Part shown: piece after piece, positions 1 to 38,485 of the stretch
How positions within the stretch are numbered: the first letter of the stretch is position 1
How the letters are laid out: every line of letters begins with the position of its first letter
Origin: a phage
Assembly (NCBI GenBank): GCA_016969615.1
Contig: GCA_016969615.1_4548.1
Strand: one strand, 5' to 3'
Length of the DNA: 38,485 bases
Made by a program: the position numbers and the translations under genes
The notes under the pieces: model-generated
What the model was told of the DNA's origin: nothing
What the model saw: the letters and a program-made list of their open reading frames with translations, nothing else
The model's database searches: none

Positions 1-648
1 GCTTCGCAAGGCCGCATCACCGACACTAACCCACGCTCCTAGCCCAATGCCACCAGACGTTTCAGGAGTGGAACCAGCAGGAACGTTCTTTGGAAGCGTA
101 CCATCCCAGCGGTAATAATCACCATCCTCTTCCCATAGCAGGGCCTCGTTCCATGTTGTAACGTTGAAGCCTTTCTCGAAGGAGCGACGGGTAATATAGC
201 CAACTAGACCAGCTGCCTTGATTCTCTCAGCGATTCGTCGTGCTTCGTCCTCGCTATCCTTAGCGTTGCCAGCAGAGCTACCAGCAGCATCGGCATATTC
301 CTTCGCTAAGTCAACAGTTTGGTCTCGACCTTCTTCTGCAATATGGATAGCCTGAAGCTCTGCATTGGTCAGGTCACTAGCTGTCAACACTGAGCCATTC
401 CTGAAGTCTACCACTAAGTCAGTTCCAGTCTGACGGTGAATACGAACGATGTCGAAACCTGATTGGTCAACCAACATCTCAATCATCGTTGGATTAAGGA
501 ATCGGTAATCTCGACCAACTTCCAGTACACGGTTCAGGGTGGGGTTAGAGCTATTCACCAGCGTAACAACAACAAACGTTCTGGCTAGGTATTCGAACTC
601 AATCCTGTACTGAGTGTTTCCTGAAGGGAATTGTGTAATCGTGGACAT
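1..648 (-). CDS. gp17: Tail fibre/tailspike protein, N-terminal adaptor domain (5' part only; ORF runs off the window start)
   Basis: ATG at 648..646 after AAAGGAGG; 216 codons open to position 1; translation [32 protein letters not shown]...[12 protein letters not shown]...[10 protein letters not shown] matches the conserved T7-family gp17 N-terminal domain. Confidence 0.85.
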
Positions 649-4604: not shown

Positions 4605-6887
4605 TTACTCCTTACCGATTAGTACGTTTGCGATACCCTCCAATGAGACGTCATTGTACATCCCTCCGCGCTTCTCGATGTTGGACTCTCGGTCAGCTCG
4701 ACGTTTGTCACCAGCAGCTTTAGTCCCGACGATACGCGCTCGCTTGTTAGCGTCACGTTCTGCCTGAGCGTATGCGGCATCTTGTGCCTTCTGCTGTTGT
4801 TCGCGGTAGAGTTTACCTACAAGTTCTTTATCGTAGCGAATACGAATAGTCCCTGTAGCGTCTTGGAGGAAGATAGAGCCGTTCTGTTCAACAACGGACA
4901 ACTGAGAGTTCACTACCCAAGGGTTGGCCTTAATGAGCTGCTTACGAGCGGTGTCGATAATGTCTCGACCAACCTGCCACGACTCTGGGCTATCCCCGAC
5001 CATAAGCTGGTGTTTGGAAACCATGCCGATGGACTTACCGTCCGAACCTTCAGACTGGAACGTTACTGTATTCTCATTAAGCCAGCGTTGAGTCTGCTGA
5101 GTTGCGGCGTCAGCGTTACCTGTACGATAGTACCATGAGTCCCAGACCTTACGAGCACTTGAGTCCAGAGACGTTGGGAGGCGAGACAACTGGGTGTTCT
5201 TGGAGTCGTTCTTCAACTCCTGCCACGCCTTGTCTGACTCCATGCGCATCTCACGGCTTTGACTTGCAGCTTGCTTATCAGCTTCAATCATCGTCTGAGG
5301 GTCCAGACCCATCTTGTCCATCTGGTCGAACGTAGAGAACAACTGAGCTTGGTCAGGATACAGAGCAGCAAAACTTGAAGGGTCCTGAGTGTAGGCACGA
5401 CGAAGAGACTCGAAGCGTTGCATCTTGTCTGGGTCGTACTGTCCACGGATGACAGCAGCTTGCCACTCGCCAGCAGCGTCCTGAGTTAGAGTCTGGAAGG
5501 CATTACGGAACGGACCGTTGTTAGTGTCGGCTCTTAACAATGCCACCTTCTGAGCGTCTTTAGCAGCCTCAGGAATGTCCATCTGGTCAATCTGCTGTAG
5601 CTTGGCAGACGCATAGTTGTTCATGTCAGAACGCTTGAACTCGCCTGTAGCATCTGAGACCGGAAGGTCCTCATAGTTGGTGGACACGTTGTCACCAGCC
5701 AGACGTCGCTGATACACTTGGTCAATGACCAGTTGCTTGTTCTGAGTCTGGATTAACTTAGTGTTCTCCTTCGCCTGTTCAGCAGACTTACGCTTTACCG
5801 CTTCCAGTAAGCTGGCTTCGGCATTAATAAGCATCTGGCGCTGAGGCGTTAGTTCTTCACCCGGCTGAAGCAGGTTGTTCTGCTCCTTGAGTTTCTGAAT
5901 CTTGGCAAGACCGATGGTTGGGTCGTCCTGAAGAATCGCAGACTGAACGCCTAACGCTAAGTCCTCCTGATACTTAGCCACCAGCTTGTACTCAGTTCCT
6001 TGTGCCTCAACAATAGCAGCGTTGAAGACATCAGGTCCCACAATCTCCTCGACTGTAGCGTCCACACCGTTAAGGGTGATTCGCTCTCCTCGAACTTGCT
6101 GTAGGAAGTTTGAGCCGCCAGACTTCTGGATTGCGTCACGGACCGTCTGGGTGATGACCTCTCGTGCTCGCTGGTCCGAAGGGATCGCAGCAGTAGTTAG
6201 TCCATCCCGAAGGTAGGCCATGAAGGTCTTTCCAGACTCAGGCGAACGCATCAGGTCCCCATCGTTAAGGAACGAGTTCATCTCAATACGAGTGTTCAAC
6301 ATTGCTGTCTCTTCAGACTGCTTGCTGAAATACTTATTGAAAGACCCATAGATAGCGATGTTGCGGTCTGTGATGTTATCGTTGAACCCGCGCTGGAAGA
6401 ACTCGTCGGTAGGGTTAATACCCGCCTCTTCAGCATAGGACTTAGCGGCGTCCTGCAGTCGCTGGTGGCGATACTCTTCCATCTCCTGACGTGTACGGAA
6501 CTCACCGTTCTGAATCTTAACGTTAATCTCGTCATCCACCGCAAAGGCAGCGTTACGGCCCGTCTTGACTCGAAGTGCTTCCATAGCGTAAGGGTCGTCC
6601 TGATATAGCAGCGTGCCGTTCTGGATAGCCTCACGTCTTTGCTGAGGTGTCAGCTTACGGATAATCTCGTTAGACCTCTCGTCGGCACGGGTCTTCTCCT
6701 CGTCTTTGAACTGCTTGTATAATCCAGTCCCAGACTCAACGAAGTTGGTTAACGCACGAGCCAGACCGGAGTCACCAGTTGGAGCCTGAACGCTGGCTGC
6801 TTGATAGTTGACGGCGATAGTTTTACCCGGCGCTCTGCCACGACCTATAGTCCGATTAGCCAGTGCTGATTCAATATTACTAGCCAT
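4605..6887 (-). CDS. gp15: Internal virion (core) protein C
   Basis: 760 aa; motifs shared with T7 gp15 (ADERSNEIIRKLTPQQRREA, GTLLYQDDPYAMEALRVKTGRNAA); RBS AAGAGGAGG. Confidence 0.9.
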   Translation of the reverse strand: MASNIESALANRTIGRGRAPGKTIAVNYQAASVQAPTGDSGLARALTNFVESGTGLYKQFKDEEKTRADERSNEIIRKLTPQQRREAIQNGTLLYQDDPYAMEALRVKTGRNAAFAVDDEINVKIQNGEFRTRQEMEEYRHQRLQDAAKSYAEEAGINPTDEFFQRGFNDNITDRNIAIYGSFNKYFSKQSEETAMLNTRIEMNSFLNDGDLMRSPESGKTFMAYLRDGLTTAAIPSDQRAREVITQTVRDAIQKSGGSNFLQQVRGERITLNGVDATVEEIVGPDVFNAAIVEAQGTEYKLVAKYQEDLALGVQSAILQDDPTIGLAKIQKLKEQNNLLQPGEELTPQRQMLINAEASLLEAVKRKSAEQAKENTKLIQTQNKQLVIDQVYQRRLAGDNVSTNYEDLPVSDATGEFKRSDMNNYASAKLQQIDQMDIPEAAKDAQKVALLRADTNNGPFRNAFQTLTQDAAGEWQAAVIRGQYDPDKMQRFESLRRAYTQDPSSFAALYPDQAQLFSTFDQMDKMGLDPQTMIEADKQAASQSREMRMESDKAWQELKNDSKNTQLSRLPTSLDSSARKVWDSWYYRTGNADAATQQTQRWLNENTVTFQSEGSDGKSIGMVSKHQLMVGDSPESWQVGRDIIDTARKQLIKANPWVVNSQLSVVEQNGSIFLQDATGTIRIRYDKELVGKLYREQQQKAQDAAYAQAERDANKRARIVGTKAAGDKRRADRESNIEKRGGMYNDVSLEGIANVLIGKE

Positions 6888-32187: not shown

Positions 32188-32433
32188 TCAGTTAGCGAAA
32201 TAAGGAGCTGAGGCGCTCGCTGTAGGACTCACGGTTATCTGTGAGTCTATCAAGTAGGTCTCGTTGTCTATACGCACAGTATCTACGCTGTAGTTGCTGA
32301 ACGGCTTGCTTGAGACCTTGCGCACTACCACACGGTGACGCGCTCCTGTCATCTCTTTAAGCTGAATCCACGCATAACCTTTAGTGTTCACGAATACTTC
32401 ATTGTGATTAGTGATTGTGCTTAAGTGTTTCAT
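32188..32433 (-). CDS. Hypothetical early protein, first gene after the early promoters and upstream of ocr
   Basis: 81 aa from ATG 32433 (RBS AAAGGA, 8 nt); track ORF starts 3 codons earlier at 32442 with no usable spacing; no domain recognised. Confidence 0.6.
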   Translation of the reverse strand: MKHLSTITNHNEVFVNTKGYAWIQLKEMTGARHRVVVRKVSSKPFSNYSVDTVRIDNETYLIDSQITVSPTASASAPYFAN

Positions 32434-32465
32434 AGTGTCCATCCTTTAAGTTAGTGGCTATCAGT

Positions 32466-32496
32466 CAGGGCCTTCAGATGTAGACTCAAGGCCCTG
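32466..32496 (-). promoter_or_regulatory. Early-leader hairpin (R0.3-like RNase III site candidate)
   Basis: perfect 9-bp inverted repeat cagggcctt / aaggccctg with 13-nt loop; 3-7 nt downstream of it lies CTCTTTAACAATCTGG, which matches the T7 0.3 leader as I recall it. Confidence 0.5.
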
Positions 32497-32618
32497 TAGT
32501 TAGTCGCTATCGGCGCACATTAAGAGTTTATCCAGATTGTTAAAGAGCATTCGCATTGGCTGTCGTCGCCGTGCTATCCCGTTTCAGTGTTGGGACTCAC
32601 TAATCTTGCTTGCCGTAT

Positions 32619-32647
32619 AAGTTACTACAGTCAAACCAGCTTGTCAA
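32619..32647 (-). promoter_or_regulatory. Host sigma70-type early promoter candidate (A3-like)
   Basis: minus TTGACA, 17 bp, TAACTT. Confidence 0.4.
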
Positions 32648-32686
32648 TCACTTTCTTAACTCGCTTGCTGTCCTGCTTGGTGAATC

Positions 32687-32715
32687 ATACTACGTTAAGT
32701 CTTACATCTTGTCAA
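32687..32715 (-). promoter_or_regulatory. Host sigma70-type early promoter (A2-like)
   Basis: minus TTGACA, 17 bp, TAGTAT; upstream TAAGTAGACAGCCTGATAAGTC matches the T7 A2 region as I recall it. Confidence 0.6.
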
Positions 32716-32827
32716 CTACTTTCTGTCATCTGCCTGTTGTTCGTATGACTTATCAGGCTGTCTACTTAACCTGGATGACCCGGCGTCTCCACTATCCGGT
32801 TGTTGCCGTGTCGTGTTGACGGAAGCT

Positions 32828-32856
32828 ATTAAGCCACAATCTAGACCCATAGTCAA
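32828..32856 (-). promoter_or_regulatory. Host sigma70-type early promoter candidate (A1-like)
   Basis: minus TTGACT, 17 bp, CTTAAT with AT-rich upstream stretch; layout resembles T7 A1. Confidence 0.45.
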
Positions 32857-32940
32857 TAGGTAATTTGAAATAATATTGATTGAGCTATCGTCGGCCCCAT
32901 GGTGTAAGAGGATATAGTCTTTGATTAACATGTCTTAGAC

Positions 32941-33064
32941 CTTAAGTCTATAGCCATTGTGTCTATTAACTGTAGGTTTATACTGTAGGTGTTGGTGTCG
33001 TATGGTTGAGACTGTAGGTTAGTGAGACTGAAGGTTGTGACTTATGGTTGTGACCTATGGTTAT
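32941..33064 (-). repeat. Array of short degenerate repeats on the genome-left side of the junction
   Basis: at least seven copies of minus AACCTACAG-like units (plus ctgtaggtt, cttatggtt, cctatggtt); analogous to the T7 CCTAAAG arrays. Confidence 0.5.
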
Positions 33065-33239
33065 ACAGATAGAGACTCAGAGACAGACCGATAGTCCCAA
33101 CCTATCGTCCCGACCTCCAGCCATAGCCTAGACCTATCGTCTTGACCATCGGCCCAACCTTATGATATACTGGGGTAGGGCCTTTGGTCTGGACTGAAAG
33201 AGGGCCTATGGGGAGACTTGAGGTTCTTGAACTGTGAGA
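33065..33239 (-). repeat. Candidate terminal-repeat region / physical genome left end (single junction copy)
   Basis: minus strand from 33239 reads TCTCACAGT...CCCCATAGG...GTCTCTGAGTCTCTATCTGT, resembling the start and end of the T7 terminal repeat as recalled; extent is a guess. Confidence 0.3.
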
Positions 33240-33450
33240 TGTGGTCTCAAACTTTTGGTCCAAAACTCATCGTCCCTCCTTAGGAGTCCCTGCTACTGTA
33301 GGTAATACCGTAGGTCAGAGACCTTGGGATAGACCATGGACTGCTATAGTGTTACTTTAGGTCCTTGACTACAGTAGCTAAGGTCAGTAGAGTGAGTCTT
33401 TATCCACGTACTGACCTTAGGTCTTCCGCTCATGAATCATTACCATGATT
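33240..33450 (-). repeat. Short degenerate repeats on the genome-right side of the junction
   Basis: minus GACCTAAGG, GACCTTAG, GGACCTAAAG, GACCTACGG, CTCCTAAGG units; contains a degenerate promoter-like sequence at 33339..33360. Confidence 0.45.
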
Positions 33451-33453
33451 GCG

Positions 33454-33612
33454 TTAATTACACTGAGAGACCAGAGAGCATACGAGAGTCTCGACCCACC
33501 CGACCCACTGACTTCCAGCAGTAACGCCAGCAGCAAGTAGAACAGCAGCAAGAAACCTGTATGTAGCTCGATTGGTCGCCAGAGCTTTAAGTACAGCTTT
33601 GGTCTTTGCCAT
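33454..33612 (-). CDS. Candidate 52-aa hydrophobic protein (gene 19.5 position)
   Basis: AGGAGG then 10 nt then ATG; MAKTKAVLKALATNRATYRFLAAVLLAAGVTAGSQWVGWVETLVCSLVSQCN; downstream of the last phage promoter; below ORF-track cutoff. Confidence 0.35.
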   Translation of the reverse strand: MAKTKAVLKALATNRATYRFLAAVLLAAGVTAGSQWVGWVETLVCSLVSQCN

Positions 33613-33796
33613 ATGCTACATACCTCCTGTATCTATGGTCGGTGACTATCTGTATTGGAGGGATTATGATTAATATCACCCTCCTTCCATCGGTGCAAGC
33701 CTTAGGTAAGAACTCGGAGTCTGCCTCCTAAGGTCTTGCATAAAGTCTGCATATGTATATTCACTACAGTAATACTATAAGTAACCGGGGGTCTTC

Positions 33797-33814
33797 CCTA
33801 TAGTGATAGTTAAG
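33797..33814 (-). promoter_or_regulatory. Phage RNA polymerase promoter core after the terminase gene (phiOR-like)
   Basis: minus CTTAACTATCACTATAGGGAAG; reads across the genome-end junction. Confidence 0.8.
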
Positions 33815-33909
33815 TCCAAACTCCTTGTAAAACAGTAGGTTAGACTGGTAGTAACTATAGGTTACTAACTGCGTATTCACGCAGCTTTCACCTATAATTA
33901 TTCATTCAG

Positions 33910-35673
33910 CTAGTGGAACGTAACGTATGACCCTAGTCCCAGCTCGTCGTCCGTATCGTGAGTTACCCGGACCCCATTGTCCCAGAACTCAGTGTGGATG
34001 GACTCGAAGCCTTTCCGTGGGTTCTCCATCTGTTCCTCCAGCCACTCCTCAGTGACTTCACGTTCGCCCTTGTTGGCATCCTTAGCCATAGACTCAACGA
34101 AGAACTGTACACCGATAGCCAGAGCATCAAGTCGGTCATCGTGTGCCAAGGCTCCACGTTCACGAGAGATACGTGTCATCTGGTAGAAGAGAGAGTAGAT
34201 AGGGTTACGAACACCATCCTTATCAGAGGCCGACTGGTAGTCTTGGACGATAGCAGCAGCGTTAACGATAAGTCGGTGAGACCCCATGATAGGCTCCAGA
34301 ACGTCACAGATTCGGAGTTCTTTCTGCCCCTTACTCTTCACTTCAGTTACAGCAGCAGGATGGATACGACCCGCTACAGGCTTGAATAACTCAAGGTACA
34401 TACCATCACCGAAGTTACCCTCAATGACGTATTCGTTGACCTTCCACTTACGACCAATCTTAGCCAGAGCTTCCAGCGTAGAGTCTTCATAACCACCACG
34501 CATACCACCAACTTCCATAGCGAAGATGTAGCCGTTGAGCTGGTACAGTACCGCATATCCAGTTTCATCCTTACCACGACCACTAGGGTCAATGACCAGA
34601 ATCTTCTGGGTGTATGAACTGAAGGCAGAACCTACAGTCTGATACGTGTGGTATGAGTCACCCATGAGTCCAACGTTAGGAACGTCCTCACGCTTGTTCT
34701 GAGGGTTAGGCAACCATTGGTAGACCATTGGGCTGGACGATGGGTCCAAGTCAGCTACGATAAGGTCACGGAGCTTCAGAGGGTACTTCTCAGCATCACT
34801 TAGGTTCGGGTTGAGCATGAACTGTAGAGCGAAGCCAGCTTTACCGTAGGACAACTCACGTTCCTTCAGGTCAGTATCGTCAAATCGAACTTCATCGGTC
34901 GGACGCCAGTAGAAGGCCTCAGGGTCCTCTTCAAGCTCTGCCTGAAGCATAGGAGCCAGACGGTCTCCGTAAGACTGCCAGTCCTTCCTGTCGCGTGGAT
35001 AACGAGCGGGCCAGATAGTAGTGGTGTACCCACGGCCTTCCAGCTCACGATACAAGGTCATCTCGTTCTGAGGAGTACCCAGATAGATGATTGTACCTCC
35101 CGGCTTCAGGATAGCGTCGAACTCCTTCACAAGCTCTGACAGACGGTCTCGTGCGGCCTGAGTCGCTGAGTTGTTTGGAACCTCCACGTCGTCGGCAATC
35201 AGGATGTCAGCACGACTACCAGTCAACTGACCAGTGATACCAACGGACTTAACCGAAGGTGAGTGGTCTGGCTTGGCTGGTCCAACATCGAAGCTGATAA
35301 CCGCATCTCGCTGTCCCTGCTTAGGTTTGAGTTCCTGAAGCTGAGGCATGAGGTCGATGATTCGCTTGATGAAGATGGAGTTAGCATCGGCTCGTTCCTT
35401 TGAGGCCGACACAATCATGAACTTCAAGTCTGGGTTGTTCCATAGCTTCCAGACAACGAAGGCGCACGTAATGAAGGACTTCCCGATACCACGGAACGCC
35501 TGTAGGATGAAGCGCCTGTTGTCCCCAGCCGATAGTTTCTTCGCCATATCAATCTGACAGCGAGTCGGGACTGGGAGTGACAGAGCTTTCCACAGGACGA
35601 ACAGGAAGAACACGAAGTCTGACTTCATACGTGCAGTCATTAGCGCCTGACGCGCCACTAAGTCTTTACTCAA
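33910..35673 (-). CDS. gp19: Terminase large subunit (DNA maturase B)
   Basis: 587 aa (T7 gp19 586); near-continuous identity ([73 protein letters not shown]); start read as TTG at 35673, ATG alternative 33 nt downstream. Confidence 0.95.
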
Positions 35674-37556: not shown

Positions 37557-38485
37557 TCACTCAAACCAAGTTGATATTTTGTAAGTGATTGAACCGCGAA
37601 TGGTTGCTGATGATGTAAGATCTTCATTTGTCAATGGCGAGGTTGATGATCCATCTACTAGCTTGTAAAAATCTAATGTTGTTGAATTTCTTTCCATAGA
37701 TATACAAATCTGACCAACACCAGAGCTAACCCCACTTACCCTTGATATGGTCCCAGATGCCACATCGGACGATGCGTAAGGTAGATTTCTAAACCGTAAC
37801 TGTCCGGTTTGACCTCCCGCACCATTGAATGAAATATCAAATTCAAGGGTAATTAAACCACCTTCTTTTCTCAGTTTTACGTCTTTTGTGGCGCCACCTA
37901 TGTCAGATGTAATATCCCCGAAAGTTATCACCACAGAAGAGTCAAGAACCGAACTAAGGGAGAAGGGTTCAAACACGACAAGGTTAGTACTGCCTCCTTT
38001 GTAGATATAACTATTGGTAGGTGTGTTGTACCGCACTGTGTTACCCTCGCCACTACAAGCAACACGTGGGATTGTATTGCCGCCGAATGAGCCACCATTG
38101 AACACAATGTTATTCCCAGTACTATGTATCCAGAGGTCACGACTATATGAAGTGTCTTGACCGAACACTAAGAAATTATTGAAGGTGAGGTTGTTATCAC
38201 TATGCACAGATAACAGGTTACCTGTACCACCTGCCGGTAAGATATAAAAGTCTGTAAGTGTCATGTCATTACCTTGCTGAAAATGACCCAGGACTCCAAG
38301 GGCAGCATCCTGTGTAGTGGGTAACTCAGCACCACATCCTGTAAGATTAAAGCCGTTGTTATTATCAAACCAGTACGCGCCATACACTGTACCATCAGAC
38401 GCACAGCTTCTCATATTACCATACTGCTGGTTGCTAATTCTAAATGCACCAGGCGTTACTGTAGGGTCTGTAACCTTAGCAAATA
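37557..38485 (-). CDS. gp17: Tail fibre/tailspike C-terminal receptor-binding region (3' part only; ORF enters from beyond the window end)
   Basis: open frame from the window edge to TGA at 37557 (308 codons), then holin as in T7; visibly AT-richer than the rest (about 35-40% GC in sampled lines); no similarity to T7 gp17 C-terminus recognised. Confidence 0.7.
   Translation of the reverse strand, partial: FAKVTDPTVTPGAFRISNQQYGNMRSCASDGTVYGAYWFDNNNGFNLTGCGAELPTTQDAALGVLGHFQQGNDMTLTDFYILPAGGTGNLLSVHSDNNLTFNNFLVFGQDTSYSRDLWIHSTGNNIVFNGGSFGGNTIPRVACSGEGNTVRYNTPTNSYIYKGGSTNLVVFEPFSLSSVLDSSVVITFGDITSDIGGATKDVKLRKEGGLITLEFDISFNGAGGQTGQLRFRNLPYASSDVASGTISRVSGVSSGVGQICISMERNSTTLDFYKLVDGSSTSPLTNEDLTSSATIRGSITYKISTWFE

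Follow-up and report, generated by a model that had tools for sequence, protein, structure and literature searches.

Where does the genome of a phage begin and end when both edges of its assembled sequence lie inside one gene? The question is raised by a stretch of 38,485 nucleotides (nt) of phage DNA (assembly GCA_016969615.1, contig GCA_016969615.1_4548.1; the whole stretch is called the window here), in which an initial annotation had placed the junction of the genome ends within positions 32941 to 33814. We conclude that the window is very probably one K1F-like unit genome, circularly rotated, and that this region is the concatemer-junction form of its ends. Several lines of evidence carry this reading: both ends are homologous to, and in exact register with, ends mapped experimentally in relatives, a single repeat copy is present, and the elements around it are conserved. 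Read along the minus strand, the junction runs from a phiOR promoter through gene 19.5, a conserved hairpin, CCTAAAG-like repeats, one terminal repeat, the element ATCTGTAT and a second repeat array to three host-type promoters. Its central features are as follows.

33378 to 33420, no strand assigned: conserved stem-loop, an inverted repeat with perfect 12-nt arms (CTAAGGTCAGTA and TACTGACCTTAG) and a 19-nt loop
33240 to 33425, minus strand: unique right-end region with CCTAAAG-like heptamers (motifs at 33421, 33361, 33314, 33302, 33284 and 33258)
33071 to 33239, minus strand: predicted direct terminal repeat, single copy, 169 bp, placed by homology with the ends of K1F, EcoDS1, SH5 and SFPH2
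33063 to 33070, minus strand: ATCTGTAT junction element, directly after the repeat, counterpart of ATCTGTT in T7 and T3
32946 to 33062, minus strand: left-hand CCTAAAG-like array (motifs at 33060, 33047, 33034, 33018, 32989 and 32976)

The left end was recognized from its neighborhood. Minus-strand position 33239, where the initial annotation had seen a T7-like left end, aligns with nt 1 of K1F, of EcoDS1 (annotated repeat 1 to 178) and of Citrobacter phage SH5 (annotated repeat 1 to 191), and the proposed position is thereby upheld to the base. The 65-nt block from 33274 to 33210 is identical or nearly identical to the joint between right end and left end in these three phages, and at least the first 30 nt after the 33239 cut site are identical in the window and all three. 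The 35 nt preceding 33239 (GACGATGAGTTTTGGACCAAAAGTTTGAGACCACA) are the sequence found before the right repeat copy in EcoDS1 and SH5, with K1F differing at the first base; the window therefore reads from right-end unique sequence through the repeat into left-end unique sequence. The virion left end would thus lie at 33239, with a sequence starting TCTCACAGTTCAAG. The 9-mer TCTCACAGT, which forms nt 1 to 9 of T7, occurs once in the window (minus strand, 33239 to 33231), but was rejected as evidence by itself: 0.71 copies are expected by chance and it was present in 50 of 100 shuffles, a frequency about equal to that observed. As the 9-mer alone is not significant, its meaning is taken from its context.

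Ends mapped experimentally in relatives are in the same register. Those of SH5 were determined by run-off Sanger sequencing of virion DNA (PMC4925675), and that paper gives, second-hand, a length of 179 bp for the K1F repeat. In IME-SF2, a T7-like Shigella phage of 40,387 bp, read-start pile-ups at F4426 and R4615 defined a 190-bp repeat (Li et al., PMC3896407). Window position 33239 aligns to position 4615 of the SFPH2 record (NC_048025; 40,387 bp), which is probably the same phage. From 4615 down to 4426 this record reads TCTCACAG...GAGTCGCT, followed by ATCTGTAT, and its positions 4615 and 4426 are the exact homologues of 33239 and 33071. A rule by which the repeat extends from TCTCACAG to the base before ATCTGTAT reproduces the IME-SF2 ends that were mapped by read-start pile-ups. 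The left end in the window is in exact register with the left ends of K1F, EcoDS1 and SH5 and with R4615 of IME-SF2/SFPH2, and end homology with these four phages bears out the proposal that a genome-end junction lies inside the window.

The right boundary of the repeat was placed in the same way. The window reads ...CTGAGTCTCT and then ATCTGTATAACC, the boundary falling between 33071 and 33070. Each of K1F, EcoDS1 and SH5 was deposited with two identical copies of its repeat, which stop at, or within one base of, ...GAGTC(T/C)CT directly before ATCTGTAT. The SFPH2 repeat, like these three, stops at or within one base of the point before ATCTGTAT, which in the window is the step from ...GAGTCTCT to ATCTGTAT at 33071/33070. 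The repeats of T7 (160 bp) and T3 (231 bp) stop directly before ATCTGTTA; in the window, too, the repeat ends immediately before an ATCTGT junction element, the seventh base of which differs from that of T7. Among 25 IMG/VR loci carrying a gp19.5 homologue, six (Kayfunavirus contigs) end at the homologue of 33071 (...GAGTCTCT) or within 0 to 4 nt of it. The repeat is most likely 33239 to 33071, 169 bp long, with its inner boundary at 33071. The boundary of 33065 given in the initial annotation had to be moved, as it lies about 6 nt too far: the repeats of relatives stop before ATCTGTAT. It is improbable that the junction is the same but that the repeat is bounded elsewhere, either at 33065, so that it includes ATCTGT, or at a point several bases away in one direction or the other. 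The deposited ends of relatives do scatter from -1 to +4 nt, and the "concatemeric junction" annotation of EcoDS1 overlaps the last 2 nt of its repeat. However, the deposited copies of K1F, EcoDS1, SH5, T7 and T3 all stop just before ATCTGT (one base earlier in K1F), and the IME-SF2 terminus F4426, mapped by next-generation sequencing, is the base just before ATCTGTAT.

When the repeat was searched for throughout the window, a single copy was returned, in agreement with the initial annotation; the second copy is absent. Merging of the two terminal copies by the assembler and real concatemeric DNA give an identical sequence, between which the sequence alone cannot decide. Since concatemers in the T7 model carry exactly one repeat copy per junction, the same sequence would be expected if the contig represented real head-to-tail concatemers or replicative DNA, for example from infected cells in a metagenome. 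We nevertheless consider such an origin unlikely. Short-read assemblies of T7-like phages routinely collapse or delete the short terminal repeats (PMC10438801). The junction is internal, in the form seen here, in at least 61 deposited relatives and in 14 of the 25 IMG/VR loci, which run through it with a single repeat as the window does. In addition, the window edges break at the boundary between conserved and variable parts of gene 17, which resembles a break in an assembly graph.

The two parts of gene 17 at these edges are the following.

1 to 648, minus strand: N-terminal part of gene 17, 216 codons (MSTITQ...GDAALRS), running off the low edge
37557 to 38485, minus strand: C-terminal receptor-binding part of gene 17, 308 codons (FAKVTDP...), beginning at the high edge

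Both edges therefore fall in gene 17, as the initial annotation had said. The N-terminal part has ∼95% nucleotide identity with gene 17 of the K1F group up to the window edge, where the homology stops exactly. The C-terminal part has 49% protein identity to the tail fiber C terminus (308 amino acids) of the N4-like (Gamaleyavirus) phages F22 and E20, and the match begins with the residue directly following the edge. Joined edge to edge, the two halves of gene 17 are one base out of frame, and the circle is therefore nearly but not exactly closed, with 3n + 1 bases missing; the 1-nt defect represents either such missing bases or an error of closure or trimming. Of the view that the sequence is circularized or concatemeric, the rotated unit genome meeting in gene 17 is retained and exact closure is not. 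Two other explanations of the break in gene 17 were rejected. A programmed frameshift at the edge would call for a slippery heptamer, which is lacking, and the break coincides exactly with the contig ends. A separate downstream tail fiber ORF (open reading frame) has no start codon near the edge, and homology with the F22 fiber runs from the first residue after it. The receptor-binding part of gene 17 looks like a module swapped between phage families; it has no nucleotide match in the phage collection, and exact 32- to 34-mers from it are absent from viral contigs and metagenome contigs.

Every recognizable gene of the window lies on the minus strand. Rebuilt in virion order, this strand runs from 33239 to 1 and then from 38485 to 33071, a total of 38,654 bp. 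The virion DNA would accordingly be predicted to be linear, ∼38,654 bp long, starting at 33239 and ending with a second repeat copy at 33071 (...GAGTCTCT). The rebuilt linear genome is colinear with nt 1 to 39252 of EcoDS1, with block identities of 77 to 99%, and homology is lost only over the C-terminal receptor-binding part of gene 17. For the 1.6 kb surrounding the junction there are 389 matching phage records, and the best of them belong to Kayfunavirus, with 90 to 94% identity. Colinearity over the genome and high nucleotide identity to other Kayfunavirus phages, as expected of a member of this genus, are both found in the window, and judged by its sequence the phage is K1F-like (genus Kayfunavirus, subfamily Studiervirinae, T7 family) and not T7 itself. 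The context expected of a T7-type junction is also present, with gene 19, phiOR and gene 19.5 upstream and host-type early promoters and early genes downstream.

35673 to 33910, minus strand: gene 19 (terminase large subunit), ORF
33793 to 33815, minus strand: phiOR-like promoter of the phage RNA polymerase (RNAP), ACTTAACTATCACTATAGGGAAG, with 0 of 23 mismatches against the annotated phiOR of EcoDS1
33454 to 33612, minus strand: gene 19.5, ORF for a hydrophobic protein of 52 amino acids
32856 to 32820, 32715 to 32678 and 32647 to 32611, minus strand: three host-type early promoters, counterparts of A1, A2 and A3, matching "host RNAP promoter" features of EcoDS1

The terminase bears on whether the genome has fixed ends at all. 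Headful packaging of a circularly permuted genome, or a true circular replicon, would leave the T7-like ends as merely inherited sequence, and the SFPH2 record is labeled "circular," though this is a deposit convention. Such a phage would have no fixed ends and, if packaged by the headful, a pac-type terminase. In contrast, the terminase gene and the junction of the window are those of fixed-end T7-type relatives: gene 19 lies in a block with 96.5% nucleotide identity to EcoDS1, all close relatives whose ends have been examined have fixed ends and a short direct repeat, and both cut sites are invariant across the genus. We regard the absence of fixed ends as extremely improbable, and the apparent circularity of the contig should not be taken to mean that the genome is circular or permuted. 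No exact match to the terminase protein is on record, whether its start is taken as TTG/L or as M.

The invariance of the cut sites emerged from an alignment of 18 distinct Kayfunavirus junctions, in which invariant noncoding runs of ≥8 nt were sought. Positions 33240 to 33233 and 33231 to 33207, across and just inside the left end, are invariant in all 18, as is CTATCTGTAT (33072 to 33063), which spans the right end. Strong constraint thus acts on both predicted cut sites. In 18/18 Kayfunavirus junctions the repeat is followed by ATCTGTAT, compared with ATCTGTTA in T7 and T3. ATCTGTA occurs on the transcribed strand of the window only at the junction. Across the genome, ATCTGTW is neither depleted nor enriched (9 matches versus 10.5 expected), a result that is neutral with regard to a role in pausing.

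In T7, ATCTGTT lies just past the repeat and acts on the phage polymerase as a class II signal for pausing or termination (10.1101/2021.01.11.426313; 10.64898/2026.02.12.705533); this signal reportedly tolerates no base change (10.1101/2021.01.11.426313). Polymerase pausing at the T7 junction element was needed for packaging, according to Lyakhov et al. (1997) as cited in 10.64898/2026.02.12.705533. By analogy, the polymerase of the present phage may pause at ATCTGTAT. Given this reported intolerance in T7, ATCTGTAT may be either a variant pause signal or an element that serves the terminase. It is possible, though we think it doubtful, that the pause specificity of the K1F-type RNAP has shifted or that ATCTGTAT is a determinant of the terminase cut site, with the hairpin at 33378 to 33420 perhaps being a packaging or processing element not described before in this genus.

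Some points weigh against the interpretation of the window as a rotated K1F-like unit genome with its ends at 33239 and 33071. The cut sites of the present phage rest on relatives and not on its own reads or virion DNA, so that cutting at these two positions is predicted by analogy. Homology alone places the right boundary, with an uncertainty of ∼1 to 4 nt, the K1F record ending one base earlier, that of CR44b one base later and that of SH3 four bases later. Compared with the repeats of the reference phages, that of the window is 9 to 22 bp shorter, which in the comparison with K1F and EcoDS1 reflects an internal deletion. The identity of SFPH2 with IME-SF2, on which the comparison with read-start pile-ups depends, is deduced from their shared length, host and country and from coordinates that fit exactly, and the record does not state it. 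Pausing at ATCTGTAT is an extrapolation, since the element differs from ATCTGTT, and the halves of gene 17 do not close in frame.

Taken as the ends of a unit genome, the junction is an ordinary, already known feature of the T7 family combined with a common assembly representation, and it involves no new biology. Its value is practical. On the minus strand the true genome would start at 33239 and end at ∼33071, both ends carrying a copy of the 169-bp repeat; with the ends located, the contig can be reoriented and annotated correctly. The analysis also flags the one-base closure defect in gene 17.

The arrays of short CCTAAAG-like repeats described in the initial annotation are real and strand specific, and they flank the terminal repeat. 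With ≤1 mismatch to CCTAAAG, the region from 32941 to 33450 holds nine copies on the minus strand and none on the plus strand; nine is the genome-wide maximum for windows of 510 nt, the mean being 1.7. The region contains a single exact heptamer, at 33361, which makes "CCTAAAG-like" the right wording. Tandem Repeats Finder reported arrays with a period of 13 to 16 nt at 33007 to 33062 and 33086 to 33116. The unique right-end region is the counterpart of the right-hand array of T7 and terminates in ...GTTTGAGACCACA directly before the cut site. The left-hand array consists of ACCATAGGT, ACCATAAGT, ACCTTCAGT, ACCTACAGT and similar units, with periods of 13 and 16 nt and direct-repeat families D1 to D3. 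A test with the motif CCWWMRG (P, ∼1e-11) was replaced by the a priori test with CCTAAAG of T7, since the former motif had been derived after the sequence was viewed and its P value was inflated.

The stem-loop sits between gene 19.5 and the terminal repeat. Nearly all of both arms (33389 to 33378 and 33420 to 33410) is invariant in 18/18 junctions, and the loop varies in sequence and length. The predicted DNA fold has a free energy of −11.4 kcal/mol (z = −2.8). The stem-loop could be a processing or packaging element or the end of a transcript. A scan of the region for terminators found none, and an Rfam scan of 32300 to 34000 at an E value of ≤1 gave no match. In T7, an imperfect inverted repeat of 19 nt occupies a comparable position after gene 19.5. 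Two smaller symmetries lie near the left end. A 13-nt palindrome, TTTTGGACCAAAA, is found at 33253 to 33265 (minus strand), 14 nt ahead of the left-end cut site, and a 5-bp inverted repeat, TGAGA...TCTCA, straddles that site at 33249 to 33235; both lie within the block common to K1F, EcoDS1 and SH5.

A mechanism for the use of this junction may be proposed from the T7/T3 model. Linear genomes with terminal direct repeats would join head to tail during replication, with neighbors sharing one repeat copy. Late transcription from phiOR, 550 nt upstream, would cross the junction and may pause there at ATCTGT. Pausing at the T7 element is said to be coupled to concatemer processing, as reported by Zhang and Studier in 2004. 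The small terminase subunit, gp18, would recognize the packaging signal in the concatemer, and the large subunit, gp19, would drive DNA into the prohead and cut at fixed sites. The repeat would be duplicated in the process, so that each virion genome has one at either end. On infection of a new cell, the left end would enter first and the host polymerase would start at the A1- to A3-like promoters. The roles of gp18 and gp19 in packaging are summarized in PMC9860248.

The closest counterpart of the junction is that of EcoDS1 (EU734172; repeat at 1 to 178 and 39075 to 39252, "concatemeric junction" at 177 to 184, phiOR at 38500 to 38522). It has the same order of elements, an identical phiOR, an identical gp19.5 and three matching host promoters; identity also extends over the 35 nt that precede the left end and over the initial 69 nt of the repeat, and its repeat ends in ...GAGTCTCT, followed by ATCTGTATAACCATA. 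The EcoDS1 repeat measures 178 bp compared to 169 bp in the window, which carries an internal deletion of ∼11 bp as well as substitutions (86.7% identity). The left-hand repeat array is shorter in the window than in EcoDS1, and genes 0.3 and 17 differ. K1F (NC_007456), the type species of Kayfunavirus with a repeat of 178/179 bp, has the same end sequences and the same ATCTGTAT after a repeat that is ∼88% identical to that of the window. Unlike the window, K1F has an extra insert of 25 nt in the right-end unique region, and its gene 17 encodes an endosialidase, whereas gene 17 of the window has a different receptor-binding module. SFPH2/IME-SF2 was likewise deposited in rotated form with a single repeat copy, but its repeat is 190 bp and its junction overall is only ∼72% identical to that of the window.

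The likeness to T7 and T3 is one of layout and end motifs. The repeat begins TCTCAYAGT and is followed at once after its end by ATCTGT, the last bases being ...TCCCT in T7 and T3 and ...TC(C/T)CT in the comparison with the window; the repeat is flanked on each side by a heptamer array, is preceded by phiOR and gene 19.5, and has three host promoters downstream of it. T7 itself has a 160-bp repeat, CCTAAAG arrays, the ATCTGTT signal, phiOL and phiOR, and promoters A0 to A3. Beyond the end motifs there is little sequence identity with T7 and T3. The element after the repeat is ATCTGTAT in the window but ATCTGTTA in T7 and T3, and the heptamers of the window are more degenerate, with a single exact CCTAAAG. 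T7 and T3 also have a phiOL-type promoter, whereas the window has none between the repeat and the first host promoter (32857 to 33062), where EcoDS1 annotates none either.

The phiOR-like promoter is the last phage promoter and is directed to the right end of the genome; eight more copies of the phage promoter, with 3 to 5 mismatches, all lie on the minus strand. From phiOR (33815 to 33793) to the first host-type promoter (32856) there are ∼940 nt without a long ORF, close to the 0.9 kb first described, although gene 19.5 lies inside. The product of this gene has 100% identity with gp19.5 of EcoDS1, 92% with the SH5 homologue and 31% with gp19.5 of T7. The middle host-type promoter (32715 to 32678) was also detected by a consensus scan. 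Two further candidate promoters were noted.

717 to 695, minus strand: phi17-like promoter, from promoter comparison
33142 to 33171, plus strand: sigma-70-like promoter inside the repeat (TTGACC, 18-nt spacer, TATACT; TG upstream of the −10 element; 10 of 12 matches)

The latter is, as a consensus match only, a candidate for a promoter directed leftward, out of the left genome end. The −10 element of its counterpart in K1F and EcoDS1 is weaker (TAGACT), and the candidate resembles A0, the annotated leftward promoter inside the terminal repeat of T3.

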